Program-made: the position numbers and the translations under genes
Notes under the pieces: model-generated
Seen by the model: only the letters and a program-made list of their open reading frames with translations
Databases searched by the model: none
What the model was told of the DNA's origin: nothing
Source of the DNA: an uncultured Bacteroidota bacterium
GTDB lineage: Bacteria > Bacteroidota > Bacteroidia > Bacteroidales > UBA12077
Length of the DNA stretch: 64,000 nucleotides
NCBI GenBank assembly: GCA_913055635.1
Contig: CAJXLK010000003.1
Span: 13,959 to 77,958 of the forward strand
Reading direction: 5' to 3'
Part shown: piece by piece, positions 1-13,301 of the stretch
How positions within the stretch are numbered: the stretch's first letter is position 1
Layout of the letters: each line of letters begins with the position of its first letter

Positions 1-2800
1 TCCGTAACTTCCGTATGCCAATTCGGTCCATCCACTTTTGCGGAAGGGTATAGCCAAGGGTTAATGACTTTAGGCGAATAAACGAGCCATCCTCCACCTT
101 ATAGGAGGAAACCTTCTGTACATCGGGATTGGCATATTCAGCCCGGGGTACGTCGGTCTTGTCGCCCGGCTCTTTCCAGCGCCTCAAGACCCTTTTTTCC
201 ATGTTGTCGAAGAAATAGGCCTCCGAATAGGTGCGCACCCCGTTGTAGATGTTGTTGCCCTGGACGAACTGGAAAAAGGCATTGAGCTCAATGCCTTTGA
301 AAGAAAGGGCGTTGGTTAGCCCTCCCTCGTAGTTGGGGTTGGGGTTGCCAATGAAGGTGCGGTCGTCGTCGTTGATGAGCCCATCGTCATTGATGTCCTT
401 AAATTCCATGGCACCGGTCTGGGCATTGACCCCGGTGAATTTGAGTCCATAAAAAGCTCCGAAAGGACGACCTTCGGCATAACGGTTTGCAAAGCCCTGG
501 TCAATGGGTTCACCGCGGTAAAGCTTTTTGATTTTGGATTTGTTGAAGGCAATGTTGAAGTTGGTGCTCCAGCGAAGGCCGTTGTTCAAATCCAGGTTGA
601 GGGTGGTTAGGCCCAGCTCAAAACCTTTGTTTTGGCTTTTGCCGATGTTTTCGATGATCGAGGTATACCCGCTGATGGCAGGCAGGGGCCTGGATAGCAG
701 CAGGTCATCGGTGTTCTTGTTGTAATAGCTGGCTGTCAGATCGATCCGATCATCAAACAGGCCCAGGTTGATGCCCCCTTCCATGGTGGTGGTTTTTTCC
801 CAGCGCAATTCAGGATTGGCCAGTTGAGCGGGAGCTACAGCCGGATTGCCCAGGTAGTTGTAATCGGAGCCCCAGAGCCCAAGCGATCCGAAATTGGCAA
901 TTTCCTGGTTGCCGGTGGTGCCGTAACTGGCGCGGATTTTAAGTTCACTGATCAGGGAATTGCCCTTGAGGAAATCTTCCTCCGAGACGCGCCAGGCCAG
1001 GGAGGCAGCCGGGAAGGTCCCGTAACGGTAGTCGGCCCCAAACCGCGATGAACCATCAGCCCGAAGGCTGAACTGGGCCAGGTATTTCTTGTCGTAATCA
1101 TATTGCACCCGACCAAAATAGGATGCCAGCTTATTGGAAGTGGTCGAGGAGCTGCCCCCGTCGATATTGGCGGCCGAGGTGATCCACTTGAAGTCGTTGC
1201 TCGGGAAATTGATGGCTTCGACCAGGGAGTAGAACTCGTTGTTTTGCTCATAGCTGAAACCGCCCAGTACGGTGAAGCTGTGGCGATCCAGGGCAAATCG
1301 GTAGGTCAGGGTGTTTTCTATGCCGATGCGGTAAATGTTGGAGGTACCGGAAGTACCGTCGCCACGGCTGCCGCGGGCTATACCAATGTCGGTGGGCAGG
1401 AAGGAATCCTCCCGCAGGTTCATGATGTCGGCATTGATCGAAGTTTTAAACTTGAGGCCGGGGGTGAACTCGTATTCCCCAAAGAGGTTCCCGATGCTGC
1501 GGAAAGTCCGTACCGAGTGTTCGGGTTCCTTGCCCATGGCTACCGGATTCGGGTAAAGGGTGTTGGTGTTATAGGATCCGTCGTCGTTGTAGACGGGTTC
1601 AGTGGGTTCAACGGCAAAAGCATTGGCCAGAGGCGCGAAGATGTTGTTGTCGCCCCAGATGCGGCTGTTGTTTTCATTGGACAGCTGGATCCGGGTGCCC
1701 AGGGTCAGGCGGTCGGAACCTTTGATGTCGGTGTTGATGCGGGTGGTGAATTTTTCATAACCCGATCCGATCACAATGCCTTTCTGATCCATGTAACCGC
1801 CCGAGATGTAATAGGTAATATTCTCATTGCCTCCGCGCAGCGACAGCTGATAGTCGCTGATCGGGGCCCGTCGGGTAACTTCATTTTGCCAGTCGGTGTT
1901 GTATTCTACATCATCGGGGCTGCCTAAATATTCTTCGAAGCCATAGGTGTTGAAAAGGGCTTCGTTCATGGCCTCAACATATTGCCGGGAATTGAGCAGA
2001 TCACGCTTTTTGGCCATTTCCTGCCGGCCCGTTGAATAGTTGAAGTCTACCTGGGTTTTGCCTTCCGCGCCTTTTTTGGTGGTGATCAGTACCACACCAT
2101 TGGCTGCACGGGCCCCGTAAATGGAAGCATAGGAGGCATCCTTGAGCACTTCAATTGACTCAATATCAGCGGGGTTGATTGATGAGGTGGCATTCAGGTC
2201 CTGGTCGAAGGTCAGCTGCTGGGAATAATCCCCGGTGTTGATGGGTACCCCGTCGACGATGTACAGGGGCTGGTTGCTGGCATTGATCGATGAAGAACCA
2301 CGGATCCGCACCGATATACCGCCACCTGGGGTTCCGCTGTTTTGGGTGACCCGCACCCCTGCCATTTTGCCTTGAAGGGCCTGGTCAACGCCCGAAAGCG
2401 CTTTGTCTTCTATGTCCTGGGTCTCGATCGATTCAACCGAGCCAGTCATCAGTTTCTTGCTCTGAGAGCCGTAACCGACCACCACCACCTCTTCCATCTC
2501 CAGGGCTGCTTCCTGGAGTTCTACATTGATGCTCGTGCGCCCTTGTATGCGAACTTCCTCGGTGCGCTTGCCCACGAAGCTGAAAACCAGTACTTCGGCT
2601 TCAGATGGCACTTCCAGGGTATATTCGCCCTCCAAATCGGTGGAAGTACCAATCGTTGTCTGGCCTTTTACGACCACCGTAACGCCCGGAATGGGATCGC
2701 CGGTCTGTGCATCGGTGACCCGTCCCGTTACCTGCTGCTGGCCGTAAACCATGGCCACGGAAAGCCAGCTCAGCAGCATCCATAAAAATAGCTTTTTCAT
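1..2800 (-). CDS. SusC/RagA-family TonB-dependent outer-membrane receptor; C-terminal end runs off the window (not in supplied ORF track)
   Basis: Minus-strand reading from ATG (complement of 2798-2800) stays open to position 2. It gives MKKLFLWMLLSWLSVAMVYGQQQVTGRVTDAQTGDPIPGVTVVVKGQTTIGTSTDLEGEYTL (signal peptide plus carboxypeptidase-regulatory-like domain). This is followed by EEVVVVGYGSQSKK...IESIEVLKDASYASIYGARAANGVVLITTKKG (plug) and beta-barrel motifs through FIRLKSLTLGYTLP. The plus-strand ORFs listed here are antisense artefacts. Confidence 0.9.
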   Translation of the reverse strand, partial: MKKLFLWMLLSWLSVAMVYGQQQVTGRVTDAQTGDPIPGVTVVVKGQTTIGTSTDLEGEYTLEVPSEAEVLVFSFVGKRTEEVRIQGRTSINVELQEAALEMEEVVVVGYGSQSKKLMTGSVESIETQDIEDKALSGVDQALQGKMAGVRVTQNSGTPGGGISVRIRGSSSINASNQPLYIVDGVPINTGDYSQQLTFDQDLNATSSINPADIESIEVLKDASYASIYGARAANGVVLITTKKGAEGKTQVDFNYSTGRQEMAKKRDLLNSRQYVEAMNEALFNTYGFEEYLGSPDDVEYNTDWQNEVTRRAPISDYQLSLRGGNENITYYISGGYMDQKGIVIGSGYEKFTTRINTDIKGSDRLTLGTRIQLSNENNSRIWGDNNIFAPLANAFAVEPTEPVYNDDGSYNTNTLYPNPVAMGKEPEHSVRTFRSIGNLFGEYEFTPGLKFKTSINADIMNLREDSFLPTDIGIARGSRGDGTSGTSNIYRIGIENTLTYRFALDRHSFTVLGGFSYEQNNEFYSLVEAINFPSNDFKWITSAANIDGGSSSTTSNKLASYFGRVQYDYDKKYLAQFSLRADGSSRFGADYRYGTFPAASLAWRVSEEDFLKGNSLISELKIRASYGTTGNQEIANFGSLGLWGSDYNYLGNPAVAPAQLANPELRWEKTTTMEGGINLGLFDDRIDLTASYYNKNTDDLLLSRPLPAISGYTSIIENIGKSQNKGFELGLTTLNLDLNNGLRWSTNFNIAFNKSKIKKLYRGEPIDQGFANRYAEGRPFGAFYGLKFTGVNAQTGAMEFKDINDDGLINDDDRTFIGNPNPNYEGGLTNALSFKGIELNAFFQFVQGNNIYNGVRTYSEAYFFDNMEKRVLRRWKEPGDKTDVPRAEYANPDVQKVSSYKVEDGSFIRLKSLTLGYTLPQKWMDRIGIRKLR

Positions 2801-3183
2801 GCTCATTGGGTTTTTAGGGTTATACTTTGTCTGATGATCTCCACTTTCCGGATGTCTGGTGGATCAAACCGGTCATGCTTACGTGGACCATAAAGGAGGG
2901 GACTCCATTTTGGAAAGATCATTCGCCGGCCAAGATACAACCGGGAATTTCATTTGGGAAAAATACTATGCAGACCATTTGTTGATTGATGTGAATCGGT
3001 CAATTTTAGCGGTTCAGTTAATTTTACATCAAAAATCAACCAGTCTGCATAAAAATATTGGTTTTCAGGGTAGAATTTTTTGCTTTTGAATCCAAAAACC
3101 CCTAATTTGCATGTAGATTTTTTGCACAGTGGCAGAACTTTATGGAAATTTTACCCGTTAAACCCTAATGCTTGCCAAACAGC

Positions 3184-9836: not shown

Positions 9837-10160
9837 TCACCCCGGCTGGCTTAATGATTTGCCAACCCCGGTCAGGAGCTTTTGGGTGGCCAAAATGCCT
9901 TGCTTTTCGCTGAGCCGGCTCCCTTCGTATTCTTTGCCAATGTATCCGTGATAATGGGCCTTGAGGACAATCCTTAATATGCGCCTGAAATCCATCGAGG
10001 TTTCATTGCCCTGTTCATCGAAGTCGTAGGTTTTAGCACGCACTCCCTTGGCATAGGGCATCAACTCCCGGATGCCCTTGTACCGGTCGTATTTTTCTCC
10101 CTCACGGATGGTAAAATTGCCGAAATCGGGCAGGGTACCGCAGTTGGGCATATCAATAGC
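9837..10160 (-). pseudogene. C-terminal fragment (~105 aa) of a xylose-isomerase-like TIM-barrel protein (sugar phosphate isomerase/epimerase family)
   Basis: IDMPNCGTLPDFGNFTIREGEKYDRYKGIRELMPYAKGVRAKTYDFDEQGNETSMDFRRILRIVLKAHYHGYIGKEYEGSRLSEKQGILATQKLL matches only the last third of this ~290-aa family. The frame is closed upstream and overlaps the end of the DUF1080 frame. Confidence 0.7.
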
Positions 10161-10162
10161 GC

Positions 10163-11050
10163 TTAGAGTTTCTTGAGTTTGATGTTGCGGAACCATACAT
10201 CGTTGCCATGGTCCTGGAGTCCGATGTAGCCCTCGCGGTATTTGCCGAAATCTTCATACTCACTGAACTTGCTGTTTTTGACCATCTCTTTCCATTGGTC
10301 TGTGCCCAGGTGGTATTCCAGGATCTTTTCTCCGTTCATCCGGTGAACCACCGTTCCCTGGTAAACCATGATCTCTGCCTGGTTCCACTCGCCTGCCGGC
10401 CGGGTGTTTTGAGGCTCAGGAGCGATCAAATCGTACAGGGCCCCGGCCATCCTGGGCTCGCCCAGCTGGGCATCAATGTGGCGTTCGTTGTCCAGCACCT
10501 GCATCTCCGGGGCCGACTGCCATATGGGTTGATCCTCCAATTCTTTGGCCAGGTAAAAAATGCCGCTGTTGCCTCCTTTAGAAATCTTCCACTCCAGTTT
10601 CAGATGAAAGTCCTTAAATTTTTGATTATAAATGATGTCTCCACCGGCTCCACCGGCTTCCCCCTTTCCTGAGCCAATGCAGCGCAGGGTCCGTTCTTCA
10701 ATGACCCATCCGCTGTCGGGAAACGCCTGGTCGTTGTATCCCCGCTAGCCTTCAAAATTTTTTCCGTTAAAAAGCAGCATCCAGCCTTCCTGCTTTTCTT
10801 TTTGGGTTAACTGGTTGGGTTGTTCCACATCGCAAAGAGCCACAATGTTTTCATTGGCCAGACCCTTCAGTACACCTCCGCCGCGCCCACCAACTCCAAT
10901 GCCGGCAATGTTGAGTTTGTCGCTGGGTGGGGTGTGCCCCAATCCCCCTACCACATAATTGGGCAGGATGGTTATACCCGCTGCCGCTACCCCGGTTTTC
11001 CGGAGAAAAGTACGCCGGGTCATTTTGGAATATTTGCTTTTTTGCTCCAT
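10163..11050 (-). pseudogene. Chimeric, nonsense-interrupted gene: Tat-signal/Rossmann N-terminus of a Gfo/Idh/MocA oxidoreductase fused to a DUF1080 (3-keto-disaccharide-hydrolase-like) domain
   Basis: MTRRTFLRKTGVAAAGITILP...LNIAGIGVGGRGGGVLKGLANENIVALCDV is a Gfo/Idh/MocA start. It runs straight into QEGWMLLFNGKNFEG-TAG-RGYNDQAFPDSGWVIEE...GIFYLA...EMQVLDNERH...IGLQDHGNDVWFRNIKLKKL, which is DUF1080. The TAG at 10745-10747 sits where the family has a conserved Trp (TGG). ORFs 10745-11077 and 10163-10540 are in the same frame. Confidence 0.75.
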
Positions 11051-11462: not shown

Positions 11463-12500
11463 TTACAAAAGCTCGATGTTGTGTTTTTCGCAGGCATCGC
11501 GCATTTCATCCGGCCAGATGCCAGCCTGTACCTCGCCAATGTGGGCTTTTTGCAGATACAACATGCAAAGCCTGGACTGGCCGATCCCTCCACCCATGGT
11601 TTGCGGCATGCCCCCCTCTAAAAGCCGGGCATGGAAAGGCAGCTCTTTTCGCTTTTCCTGTCCGCATAAGTGAAGTTGGCGCTCCAGGGATGCCGGACTT
11701 ACCCGGATGCCCATCGAGGAGATTTCAAAGGCTTTTTCCAAAACCGGGTTCCAAACCAGGATGTCGCCGTTGAGTCCTTTGTAACCATTGATCGTTGGCG
11801 AAGACCAGTCATCGTAATCGGGCGCCCGGTGGTCATGCGGTGCCCCATCCTTCAGGGTGTGGCCGATGCCGATTACAAAAACAGCCCCGTATTCCCTGGT
11901 GATCAAATCCTCGCGCTCTTTGGGCGTCTTTCCCGGATATTTTGCCTGCAACTCCTCACTATGAACAAAGGTGATCTCTTGTGGCAACCCCGGACGAAGA
12001 ACCGGTATGCGCTCGGTTAATGCCACCTCCGTTTCCACAATGGCCCGGTAAATTTTTCTGACCTCCTGTTTTAACACCTCCAGGTTACGTCTAGAGCTGT
12101 CCAGTACCTTTTCCCAGTCCCACTGGTCCACATAAACCGAATGCAGGTTGTCCAGGTCCTCATCCGGGCGCAGGGCATTCATGTCGGTGTAAATGCCCCG
12201 GATCTTTTCATTGTCCAACCGGGCCAGCTTCATGCGTTTCCACTTGGCCAGGCTCTGAACCACTTCCACTCCACTGCTGTTGAGCGATCCAACAGGGAAA
12301 CGCACCGGCTGCTCTACCCCGTTTAAGTCATCGTTGATGCCGGTTCCCGATAACACCAGCATGGGCGCCGTTACTCTTTGCAGATCCAGCTTTTGGGACA
12401 AAACCTTCTCAAATTCATCCTTGATGAACTTGATCGCCGATTCGGTCGATTCGCGGGTCAGCATGTTCCGGTAATCCTTTGGAATGATTAGATTTTTCAT
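11463..12500 (-). CDS. asnA: Aspartate--ammonia ligase (asparagine synthetase A)
   Basis: MKNLIIPKDYRNMLTRESTESAIKFIKDEFEKVLSQKLDLQRVTAPMLVLSGTGINDDLNGVEQPVRF...VYVDQWDWEKV...GGGIGQSRLCMLYLQKAHIGEVQAGIWP is class-II-synthetase-like AsnA. The true start is the ATG at 12500; the ORF-track start at 12596 lies inside the leader. Confidence 0.93.
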   Translation of the reverse strand: MKNLIIPKDYRNMLTRESTESAIKFIKDEFEKVLSQKLDLQRVTAPMLVLSGTGINDDLNGVEQPVRFPVGSLNSSGVEVVQSLAKWKRMKLARLDNEKIRGIYTDMNALRPDEDLDNLHSVYVDQWDWEKVLDSSRRNLEVLKQEVRKIYRAIVETEVALTERIPVLRPGLPQEITFVHSEELQAKYPGKTPKEREDLITREYGAVFVIGIGHTLKDGAPHDHRAPDYDDWSSPTINGYKGLNGDILVWNPVLEKAFEISSMGIRVSPASLERQLHLCGQEKRKELPFHARLLEGGMPQTMGGGIGQSRLCMLYLQKAHIGEVQAGIWPDEMRDACEKHNIELL

Positions 12501-12533
12501 GGTGTTTCGATTTAAGGATTTAACAAATAATGG

Positions 12534-12571
12534 AAAAAAAAGCCTTCTTCGGAGTTTACCGGAGAAGGCCT
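12534..12571 (-). terminator. Attenuator terminator 2 in the asnA leader
   Basis: Minus strand: GGCCUUCUCCGG-UAAACU-CCGAAGAAGGCU (12-bp stem with one C-A mismatch), followed by U7-8. It ends 33 nt before the asnA ATG. The 5' arm can alternatively pair with CCGGGGGAGGUU (12606->12595). Confidence 0.75.
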
Positions 12572-12678
12572 GAGCGATTGAAGCAATAAAAGACAACCTC
12601 CCCCGGTGGCGGGCGATTGCAATTATTGTTGTTGTTATTTTGAAGCCTGGGTTCCATCTTAGCAGCCATGTTTTTCAT
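12556..12678 (-). CDS. Candidate asnA leader peptide 2 (40 codons, six consecutive Asn codons)
   Basis: Minus-strand ATG at 12678: MKNMAAKMEPRLQNNNNNNCNRPPPGEVVFYCFNRSGLLR*. The Asn codons are AAT AAC AAC AAC AAT AAT, then TGC AAT. The stop codon lies in the loop of terminator 2. The ORF is too short for the supplied track. Confidence 0.6.
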   Translation of the reverse strand: MKNMAAKMEPRLQNNNNNNCNRPPPGEVVFYCFNRSGLLR

Positions 12679-12709
12679 AAAAAAGCCTTCCTGAAGGGCA
12701 GGAAGGCTT
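12679..12709 (-). terminator. Attenuator terminator 1 (alternatively the terminator of the upstream NTF2-like gene)
   Basis: Minus strand: AAGCCUUCCUG-CCCUU-CAGGAAGGCUU (11-bp perfect stem), followed by a U-run of six. The ATG of leader ORF 2 follows immediately. The 5' arm is complementary to CAGGAGGGCU (12756->12747). Confidence 0.75.
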
Positions 12710-12732
12710 TGGATGATGTTTGGTTGTATTGG

Positions 12733-12831
12733 TTACAGCTTGTCATAGCCCTCCTGTTCGCAAAGGCAATTGTAATTGCGATTCCAATTGGAGGGGTTAT
12801 GGTTGCTGCTTGGGTACTTCATGATTGTCAT
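12733..12831 (-). CDS. Candidate asnA leader peptide 1 (32 codons, Asn-rich)
   Basis: Minus-strand ATG at 12831: MTIMKYPSSNHNPSNWNRNYNCLCEQEGYDKL*. Six Asn codons fall within codons 10-21. The antiterminator arm lies in codons EQEGY, 11 nt before the stop. Confidence 0.45.
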   Translation of the reverse strand: MTIMKYPSSNHNPSNWNRNYNCLCEQEGYDKL

Positions 12832-12899
12832 CGTTCTATGGATACAAGAAACGAATTTTTTCACTGCCACACAAACCGTTGGTGGAAAAAATAAAGGTG

Positions 12900-13301
12900 T
12901 TAATCACTGCGCAGGTTTCGTTCAATGATGTCGTAAGGGATTTTGGTATCGGAATAAACCTGCCACCGGTCTATTTTATCGTCTTTAACAACAGCTTTCC
13001 AGGCACAGGGGAGCTTCCAGGTATTTGAGGCGTCGTTTTTTTCCTGGTTCTTATAGGTGCCTCCGGCCCATCCAAACAGGCCAATCATGTCATCCTCTTC
13101 TATGATTTCGGTCACTTCAATGGTGTAATCGGGGAAGAAATCCAGATAGCCCTTCCAGGCCTTTTTCATGTTTTCTTTTCCCACTGTCTTTTTCCCGTGC
13201 GAATTGATAAAGGTATGGTTGTCGGTCATCAGCCCGGCAATTTTCTTAAGCTGATGCGAGTTAATGGCTTTCACAAAATCCATGGCAATTTTTACGCTCA
13301 T
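12900..13301 (-). CDS. NTF2-like / SnoaL-like small protein
   Basis: 133 aa. MSVKIAMDFVKAINSHQLKKIAGLMTDNHTFINSHGKKTVGKENMKKAWKGYLDFFPDYTIEV...DDKIDRWQVYSD shows the typical SnoaL/NTF2 cone-fold pattern. Confidence 0.6.
   Translation of the reverse strand: MSVKIAMDFVKAINSHQLKKIAGLMTDNHTFINSHGKKTVGKENMKKAWKGYLDFFPDYTIEVTEIIEEDDMIGLFGWAGGTYKNQEKNDASNTWKLPCAWKAVVKDDKIDRWQVYSDTKIPYDIIERNLRSD

Follow-up and report, generated by a model that had tools for sequence, protein, structure and literature searches.

The stretch of DNA analysed here, 64,000 nucleotides (nt) of contig CAJXLK010000003.1 from an uncultured Bacteroidota bacterium and called the window below, carries asnA, the gene for aspartate-ammonia ligase (11463..12500, minus strand; Pfam PF03590, E 8e-100). 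Within the 330 bases that precede this gene on the minus strand lie two consecutive switches, each made of a leader peptide packed with Asn codons and a terminator. On computational and comparative evidence, the asnA leader probably consists of two ribosome-mediated transcription attenuators in series that sense charged tRNA-Asn. An earlier note on this DNA had already read the leader as an asparagine-sensing transcription attenuation device, and that reading is supported by the conservation of the leader in relatives, by the covariation of its alternative pairings, and by its geometry.

Results

Organization of the asnA leader

The asnA ATG is at 12500, and the upstream neighbor of the gene, across a gap of 400 nt, is a SnoaL-like gene on the same strand (13301-12900). 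In a protein similarity search, the homologues of the asnA product carry the name aspartate--ammonia ligase. When the minus strand is read through the gap, every element that the earlier note had described there is found in place. Both terminator hairpins appear in the minimum-energy fold of the whole SnoaL-asnA gap (z -4.3); a simple terminator scan of the window listed neither of them.

The first module agrees with its earlier description as an Asn-rich reading frame, followed by a terminator, with an antiterminator strand shortly before the stop codon. Leader open reading frame (ORF) 1 runs from 12831 to 12733 on the minus strand (first ATG at 12831, stop TAA at 12735-12733), encodes the peptide MTIMKYPSSNHNPSNWNRNYNCLCEQEGYDKL, and has 6 Asn residues in 12 codons between 12804 and 12769. 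Among these Asn codons is region 1 (R1), CCCCUCC (12796-12790), which pairs with GGAGGG of region 2 (R2). R2, the antiterminator strand CAGGAGGGCU (12756 to 12747), nearly repeats the sequence of the terminator 1 3' arm and ends about 11-12 nt before the ORF1 stop. Terminator 1 itself (12710 to 12679) is composed of the 5' arm AAAGCCUUCCUG (region 3, R3; 12710 to 12699), the loop CCCUU (12698-12694), and the 3' arm CAGGAAGGCUUU (region 4, R4; 12693 to 12682), with a run of six U from 12684 to 12679, two or three of which are paired in the stem.

In the second module, ORF2 extends from 12678 to 12556 on the minus strand, has 9 Asn residues in total, and ends at a TAA (12558-12556) in the loop of terminator 2. 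The earlier note had the frame begin directly after the U-tract of the first module; an ATG is indeed present there, at 12678, but the start kept in relatives is the third in-frame ATG, at 12657 (MEPRLQNNNNNN...). The Asn codons lie at 12639-12616, where AAT AAC AAC AAC AAT AAT (12639 to 12622) is followed by TGC and then by AAT (12618-12616). The six consecutive Asn codons that had been reported are thus borne out by the sequence, and they form the sole run of at least four AAY (AAT or AAC) codons on either strand of the 64-kb window, in which we found no other leader-peptide-like ORFs or Asn-codon runs. Next come four codons for Pro-Pro-Pro-Gly (CCG CCA CCG GGG, 12612-12601), a candidate ribosome pause site over R2, and the R2 of this module, CCGGGGGAGGUU (12606 to 12595), which overlaps the Pro-Gly-Glu-Val codons. 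Terminator 2 (12570 to 12534) has the 5' arm GGCCUUCUCCGG (12570-12559), the loop UAAACU (12558-12553), the 3' arm CCGAAGAAGGCU (12552-12541), and a U-tract of eight U (12541-12534) that ends 33 nt before the asnA ATG.

Conservation and distribution

The closest AsnA proteins are those of uncultured Bacteroidales. Among the matches listed from genome and metagenome contig collections, all asnA relatives have at most 64% identity, and the close relatives, with 74-83% AsnA identity, were obtained one by one by exact-protein look-up. In all five of the latter (loci L081-L085), a SnoaL gene is followed by a gap and then by asnA. The gap is 76% identical over 449 aligned columns, with ORF1, ORF2, both terminators, and both R2 segments kept. 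ORF1 and its core N-x-N-R-N-x-N are retained throughout L081-L085, the conserved start being the ATG at 12822 rather than the first ATG at 12831, and the R2 segment of module 1 is conserved in all relatives. Both modules are present in L081, L082, L083, and L085, and a single one in L084. There, a lone module-1-type unit (L084:2809-2951) sits directly before asnA in a SnoaL-asnA gap of about 270 nt versus 400 nt, which shows that module 1 is more than a terminator for the gene upstream. The same locus offers a natural one-module comparison for the contribution of the second module.

Beyond this family, two modules precede asnA in the Labilibaculum isolates L166 and L167 (including sp. DW002, GCA_029029525.1; peptides MRQIFNSNNLFNNSMNNNSLTMGSL and MNTTLNNNNNNNNSPPG), in Marinifilum sp. 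D714 (L168, GCA_030851345.1), in a Flavobacteriales metagenome-assembled genome (MAG; L067), and in an AT-rich 1.65-Mb metagenome contig (L161). One module was found in a Marinifilaceae MAG (L077) and in a locus labelled Anaerolineales (L039). In Labilibaculum and Marinifilum, the gene upstream of the leader is divergent.

A covariance model built from module 2 alone recovers the module 1 copies (E 5e-6 to 0.06), including L166:1227-1340, L167:1228-1341, L168:1228-1339, L161:1214-1317, L067:2721-2830, and L077:2846-2976 (E 5e-6 to 0.007); in 892 kb of sequence it gave no other convincing match. The two module types, already distinct both in the Marinifilaceae and in the family of the window, are therefore old paralogues or strongly convergent. 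The same model also matches, at E 0.002, an antisense segment just upstream of asnA in an uncultured Paludibacter contig (L071:2850-2958, minus strand); this region is AT-rich (24% GC), and the match is probably a bidirectional terminator rather than an Asn leader.

Alternative pairing and covariation

In module 1, the 1:2, 2:3, and 3:4 hairpins are nearly isoenergetic at -17.8, -17.1, and -17.8 kcal/mol (z -3.5, -3.5, and -4.7), and the 1:2 hairpin is present in the minimum-energy fold. In module 2, the 3:4 terminator hairpin has -17.2 kcal/mol (z -4.2) and the 2:3 antiterminator -19.2 kcal/mol (z -3.1). The folding comparison of terminator and antiterminator conformers that the earlier note had called for thus gives near-equal values in either module (-17.8/-17.1 and -17.2/-19.2 kcal/mol), and near-equal energies are what a kinetic switch would need. 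The pairing proposed between the R2 segments and the 5' arms of the terminators goes far beyond what shuffling the upstream sequence yields: the R2:R3 duplex has -18.0 kcal/mol in module 1 versus -7.9+-1.7 kcal/mol in shuffles (0 of 300 as good), and the 12-bp duplex of module 2 has -20.4 versus -11.8+-2.4 kcal/mol (fraction 0.006).

The same relation holds in all 23 modules collected from the window and the other loci. Each has an R2, inside or just past its ORF, that is a near copy of the 3' arm of its own terminator, R4, and therefore competes with R4 for R3. The version of the sequence differs lineage by lineage, as in module 1 of L082 (R2 GCAGGAAGGC, R4 CCGGGAAGGC), module 2 of the same locus (R2 CGGGGAAGGT, R4 CGGGGAAGGC), module 2 of L166 (R2 TGAGAAAGGA, R4 CGAGAGAGGC), and the single module of L039 (R2 ACGTTGGGCG, R4 GCGTTGGGCG). 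A GC-rich hairpin followed by 5-9 U, predicted to function as a terminator, closes every one of them. When a permutation exchanged the partners, each leader was fitted better by its own terminator arm than by those of other leaders (0/20000).

Covariation was scored on an alignment, A4, of anchored, ungapped R2/R3/R4 segments, which is fitted to pairing; the resulting bias was measured, R2:R3 having a mean of 9.1 of 10 pairs in the 23 modules and 6.9 of 10 in the best windows of shuffled upstream sequence. On this alignment, the 2:3 antiterminator is 91% paired with a covariation of 0.636 and changes on both sides at all ten positions, and the 3:4 terminator is 92.9% paired with a covariation of 0.614. 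No shuffle of 500 matches either result, and pairing falls to about 55% when the partner is slid by one column. The antiterminator thus covaries in the relatives as strongly as the terminator does. A cross-family MAFFT alignment (A3) was dropped, its Labilibaculum terminator arms being one column out of register. Among close relatives, the stem of terminator 2 has a compensatory U-A to C-G change that separates the window and L081 from L082 and L083, and the 1:2 pairing of module 1 has a compensatory change in L081, where CCUUCC pairs with GGAAGG. This is the one such change in the 1:2 hairpin, individual copies of which are marginal versus shuffles (0.01-0.2).

Asn codons and the reading frame

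We scanned the 300 nt upstream of asnA in 156 regions for ATG-initiated ORFs, 6-70 codons long, in which 5 or more of 10 codons encode Asn. Such ORFs occur on the sense strand in 13 regions and on the antisense strand in 1; other amino acids reach at most 3 and shuffled sequences 0-2. The window and its close relatives make up 6 of these 13, which leaves fewer independent lineages than regions. Asn accounts for 164 of the 578 codons (28%) of the 23 leader ORFs, versus 13 of 578 for Lys, and the AAY codons fall in the frame of the ORFs (164) rather than in the other two frames (7 and 13). The Asn run of ORF2 is 6 codons long in the window, 9 in L081, 7 in L082, and 7 in L083, and it reads NNNNSNN in L085. 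Among relatives the runs vary by AAT/AAC swaps and by whole codons, the pattern expected of a constraint on the encoded residue in that frame. The Asn-rich mini-ORFs and the alternative pairings, whose loss in relatives would have spoken against attenuation, are both kept.

Ribosome positions and the proposed switch

In each module of the window, R2 lies about 13-14 nt past the last regulatory Asn codon. Measured from the first base of the last Asn codon, the distance to R2 is 11-18 nt in 21 of the 23 modules and mostly 12-15 nt, which is about the reach of a ribosome ahead of its A site. We also folded nascent transcripts cut just after R3 emerges, with 28 nt masked around each A-site position. 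The antiterminator forms with the ribosome at 152 of 160 Asn codons and is lost 1-4 codons past the last Asn, with the exception of module 2 of L161, which never reaches the cut-off. Of the 23 modules, 19 have a stop codon within -15 to +22 nt of the end of R2, the exceptions being module 2 of the window and of L081, together with L083 and L161. When the 28-nt mask is placed at the stop codon of module 1 of the window, it covers just the last 3 nt of R2. The spacing and the masked folding match the classical attenuation geometry of the trp, his, and leu leaders that had been proposed for this locus.

These data suggest the following model. When Asn-tRNA is low, the ribosome would stall with an Asn codon in its A site and its front edge just short of R2. 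R2, left free, would pair with R3 once R3 is transcribed, the terminator would not form, and RNA polymerase would read on into asnA. When Asn-tRNA is plentiful, the ribosome would advance over R2, in module 1 by running to the stop codon past it, so that R3 would be free to pair with R4 and transcription would stop at the U-tract. The untranslated leader of module 1 is predicted to terminate because the R1:R2 hairpin sequesters R2 and leaves R3 free for the terminator. Two modules in series would multiply their termination efficiencies, giving a lower basal level and a steeper response, a consequence that we hold with much less confidence than the mechanism itself. The transcription start, the translation of the mini-ORFs, the stalling, and the response to asparagine are the parts of this model that we infer.

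The Pro-Pro-Gly stretch of module 2

The position of the ORF2 stop codon is not conserved. It lies just past R2 in L082, L085, and L166-L168, within the loop of the terminator in L161, L081, and the window, and 10 nt before the asnA ATG in L083, where the frame reads through the entire terminator 2 (L083:1279-1432); this read-through could couple leader translation to asnA initiation in that genome alone. Conserved instead is a Pro motif after the Asn run, which is present in the window and L081-L085 (RPPPG, LPPPGG) and in L166-L168 (SPPG directly before the stop). L067 has the weaker LPGGG, likewise at the stop, and L039 and L077 have no Pro motif. In the window and L081-L083, Pro-Pro-Pro precedes or overlaps R2; in L085 and the Marinifilaceae, Pro-Pro(-Pro)-Gly is accompanied by a stop codon at R2. 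The third positions of the Pro-Pro-Gly codons vary among relatives. Ribosomes are known to pause at polyproline motifs, the translation of which requires EF-P, and a pause of this kind uncouples translation from transcription and so promotes intrinsic termination (PMC5021804). A pause at Pro-Pro-Pro-Gly would plausibly hold the ribosome on R2, although we place far less confidence in this role than in attenuation as such, and the C-rich Pro codons could equally be retained for RNA pairing.

On the minus strand at 12585-12620, the Cys-Asn-Arg-Pro codons and the R2 of module 2 form a weak hairpin (-12.4 kcal/mol), followed by UCUUUUAUU or UCUUUUGUU (window; L081 about 2874-2905), which a relaxed scan flags as terminator-like and which is not conserved in L082, L083, or L085.

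Candidate promoters

A candidate leader promoter lies at 12875..12845 on the minus strand and consists of TTTG (12875-12872), 20 nt, and TTTCTTG (12851-12845). Neither the two blocks nor the distance between them varies among the window and L081-L083, and the blocks can also be read in L084 and L085; this element may be a non-canonical promoter. In L168, a canonical Bacteroidetes promoter, TTTG-N19-TACATTTG, precedes the ATG of ORF1 by about 20 nt. The only exact Bacteroidetes -7 box near the leader of the window, TACATTTG at 13350-13343 (minus strand), precedes the SnoaL-like gene, and this gene and the asnA leader may therefore be co-transcribed. Downstream of terminator 2, we saw no conserved promoter-like element.

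Other Asn-rich leaders and neighboring genes

The L039 locus has a terminator-type Asn leader at 2780-3000 (MSIIFFANNNNNNNVLCEDVG...), with an R2, CGTTGGGCG, that copies the 3' arm of the terminator, together with a sigma-70-like TTGACT-N17-TATAAA promoter-like site and an AAGGAG ribosome-binding site. The logic of an Asn leader is therefore not confined to Bacteroidota; it was either transferred or invented independently.

A second design of Asn-rich leader ORF before asnA, without a U-tract, was seen at L055:2823-2988, L098:1335-1500, and L129:1323-1488. The peptides end in NNNW(V/A)V(T/P/A)A(T/A)Q(E) before the stop codon, and a conserved 10-bp hairpin (UUGGGUGG..CCACCCAA) with two compensatory pairs directly follows AAU AAU AAU. 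The GGAGG ribosome-binding site of asnA in these loci could be sequestered by a nearby UUCCU segment. This design may be a translational Asn attenuator outside Bacteroidota, L055 being labelled Aminicenantes.

Downstream of asnA, a sugar-oxidation gene cluster (10181-11050, minus strand, and 9837-10196) is decayed relative to L081 and L083. Just residues 1-86 of 493 are left of the Gfo/Idh/MocA gene, and this remnant is joined to about residue 44 of a 3-keto-disaccharide hydrolase, which itself has an in-frame stop at 10747-10745. In the neighboring AP_endonuc_2 gene, the first 118 residues are unmatched in the window, and the remaining ORF has 119 residues versus 306 in relatives.

Discussion

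The asnA leader could be explained in several other ways. First, the mini-ORFs could act mainly on translation, with ribosomes that reinitiate at, or unfold, the asnA start and thereby raise asnA translation. The L083 frame that ends 10 nt before the asnA ATG suits this idea, as do the reported over-representation in Bacteroidetes of leader-gene stops 11-14 bp before the structural gene (PMC4833913) and the separate Asn-leader design without a U-tract in L055, L098, and L129. We nevertheless consider it improbable, because in eight of the nine other two-module loci ORF2 stops 62-96 nt before asnA, and 55 nt before it in the window, because a GC-rich hairpin with 5-9 U ends every module, and because reinitiation would leave the conserved copy of the terminator arm, R2, without a function.

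Second, module 2 could chiefly report proline or EF-P status, or the overall speed of translation, through its Pro-Pro(-Pro)-Gly codons, with the Asn codons secondary. In Salmonella, mgtCBR is under the control of leader ORFs with Pro codons (PMC3641672), and intrinsic termination is promoted by polyproline stalls (PMC5021804). The motif also persists behind the Asn run, with synonymous third-position changes, in both the family of the window and the Marinifilaceae. But no feature is longer or better conserved than the Asn run, the regulated gene makes asparagine, and L039 and L077 do without the motif. Moreover, a stall in the Asn run frees R2, whereas a stall at Pro-Pro-Pro-Gly covers it. 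That proline, EF-P, or translation speed is the principal signal is thus equally improbable.

Third, a factor acting in trans could read the leader RNA, either uncharged tRNA-Asn, as in a T-box, or an RNA-binding protein of the TRAP or PyrR type. Terminator/antiterminator pairs are common to all such systems, and L077 shows a sub-threshold resemblance to the PyrR binding site (E 0.73). In contrast, scans found no T-box or other Rfam family at threshold, and conservation falls on a reading frame whose Asn codons keep a constant spacing to R2, rather than on an unpaired specifier codon or on repeats of a protein site. We regard such a factor as very unlikely; a T-box or protein-binding leader was dropped as a candidate on the ground that the reading frame, rather than an RNA motif, is conserved.

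Finally, coincidence, in which terminator 1 ends the SnoaL-like gene, terminator 2 is stray, and the Asn-rich ORFs arose by accident in A-rich DNA between genes, is hardly credible. The simple scan did miss both hairpins, and the lack of any terminator between the SnoaL stop (12900) and terminator 1 means that the latter could serve the SnoaL gene too. But the Asn enrichment is specific to strand, frame, and amino acid; conservation and covariation across families extend to the ORFs, the R2 segments, and the terminators; the lone module-1-type unit of L084 sits directly before asnA; and a divergent gene lies upstream in Labilibaculum and Marinifilum, so that nothing there needs terminating.

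Attenuation by a ribosome that translates the Asn codons therefore remains the most probable account of the leader, but several observations weigh against it. First, the full-length leader at equilibrium, with ribosome masks, always folds into the terminator, and the switch must therefore be kinetic; the decision in the trp leader is likewise kinetic. Second, the exact Bacteroidetes -7 box TAnnTTTG does not occur on the minus strand of 12500-12900. The leader may instead be read from the SnoaL promoter at 13350-13343, and a weak TTATTTG between terminator 2 and asnA may be a start site. Third, the evidence from alignment has its own limits, because A4 was fitted to pairing and many of the 23 modules are related, not independent. 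Fourth, among the matches listed, most asnA loci of gut Bacteroidales and of Prevotella have nothing comparable.

The remaining difficulties concern module 2. Its R1:R2 pairing (-12.4 kcal/mol, z -1.2) is indistinguishable from shuffles, and we do not claim an R1:R2 hairpin there, as it is no better than in shuffled sequence. The state predicted for the untranslated RNA of this module varies with the upstream length that is folded, two foldings disagreeing. The reading frame of ORF2 passes through R3 into or past the terminator in four cases (the window, L081, L083, and L161), and there a ribosome close behind RNA polymerase would melt terminator 2 despite plentiful Asn unless it were delayed. 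Pro-Pro(-Pro)-Gly is the one conserved feature that could keep the ribosome from destroying terminator 2.

Taken jointly, these features allow a broader but tentative reading, which we consider possible rather than probable. The two modules would not be redundant but would form an old two-stage device kept across orders of Bacteroidota. The first stage would be a classical four-region attenuator that is off by default. In the second, a conserved Pro-Pro(-Pro)-Gly pause would take the place of the stop codon and keep an unstarved ribosome on the antiterminator strand, so that EF-P activity or elongation speed would govern asnA readthrough in addition to the charging of Asn-tRNA. The logic of the Asn leader would have arisen independently at least two more times, as a terminator type in an organism with sigma-70 and Shine-Dalgarno signals and as a hairpin-only, probably translational, type in Aminicenantes-like genomes. 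If this were true, sensing of Asn-tRNA by leader peptides would be a widespread and overlooked regulatory solution.

Even on the narrower reading, as two attenuators that sense Asn-tRNA, the leader would extend attenuation to another amino acid and to Bacteroidota, a phylum in which promoters and translation initiation are unusual, initiation not being led by Shine-Dalgarno sequences, and in which the coupling of transcription and translation has been little studied. The tandem arrangement and the polyproline stretch would provide a natural system in which to study the effect of attenuators in series on a response and the ability of programmed ribosome pauses to stand in for stop codons in the timing of an attenuator, and the model is directly testable because cultured strains of Labilibaculum and Marinifilum carry the element. 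For annotation, it would supply a means of asnA regulation where no AsnC-type regulator gene adjoins asnA, and it identifies small ORFs that are sometimes called hypothetical proteins, such as a 56-residue call in L084.

How does this leader compare with known systems? In Rfam scans of the leader region of the window and of eight related loci, no family reached its gathering threshold, and T-box and Bacteroid-trp gave no match at all. The best matches were Phe_leader (22-32 bits, threshold 55) and Thr_leader (28.7 bits, threshold 55), with E values of 0.14-0.55, and weak matches of this sort would be expected from a generic attenuator shape. The attenuator survey of Lopatovskaya et al. 2010 (Mol Biol 44:128) aside, full-text literature searches found no description of an Asn leader peptide or of an attenuated asparagine synthetase gene, and the earlier note likewise counted no Asn leader among the classical attenuators.

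The textbook leader-peptide attenuators, worked out in Proteobacteria, respond to Trp, His, Phe, Thr, Leu, and Ile/Val. Like the enterobacterial representatives (trpL, hisL, pheL, thrL, leuL, and ilvL), the asnA leader has short ORFs rich in codons for the end product, 2:3 and 3:4 pairings that exclude each other, with a predicted 1:2 hairpin in module 1, an intrinsic terminator as the last of these structures, and a predicted stall site placed to keep region 2 free. It differs from them in that it would sense Asn and regulate asnA, has no sequence homology to them, resides in Bacteroidota, usually has two modules in series, and, in module 2, carries a conserved Pro-Pro-Gly and an ORF that in several members enters the terminator. 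Within the phylum, leader-peptide attenuation has been predicted for Bacteroid-trp (RF01692; PMC2864571) and for an Ile-rich ilvE leader of Flavobacterium psychrophilum (PMC9723704, supplement), and it is therefore plausible in Bacteroidota. These leaders share with the asnA leader the phylum and the kind of mechanism; they concern another amino acid and other genes, and the portions of those sources considered here report no tandem form for them.

The tandem arrangement has a precedent in the Salmonella mgtCBR leader, in which mgtM and mgtP attenuators lie in series, a singular example according to its authors (PMC3641672). Both leaders have two short ORFs in series, each coupled to alternative stem-loops that, in asnA by prediction, govern transcription into the coding region, and Pro codons abound in one of the mgtCBR ORFs. 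The Salmonella modules respond to different signals, ATP and Pro-tRNA (PMC3641672), whereas both asnA modules carry Asn codons, and a stall at the Pro codons of the asnA leader would favour termination, not readthrough.

Control of asnA itself is best known from E. coli, where the gene is controlled by AsnC, a DNA-binding protein of the Lrp family encoded divergently from it. The gene and the signal are the same, asparagine sufficiency repressing asnA, but in the window the neighbor is a SnoaL-like gene and the proposed sensor is a ribosome reading Asn codons. Serial arrangements for a single ligand also occur among riboswitches and T-boxes. Like these, the asnA leader would place two complete terminator-based sensors of the same signal in series, with an expected sharper response; unlike these, in which the sensor is an aptamer or a tRNA-binding RNA, its sensor would be a translated ORF.

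By its predicted mechanism, then, the element is a ribosome-mediated transcription attenuator, and by its sequence it falls outside every curated Rfam family. What is new relative to the systems above is the amino acid, Asn, the gene, asnA, the habitual tandem for one and the same signal, and the conserved polyproline element.

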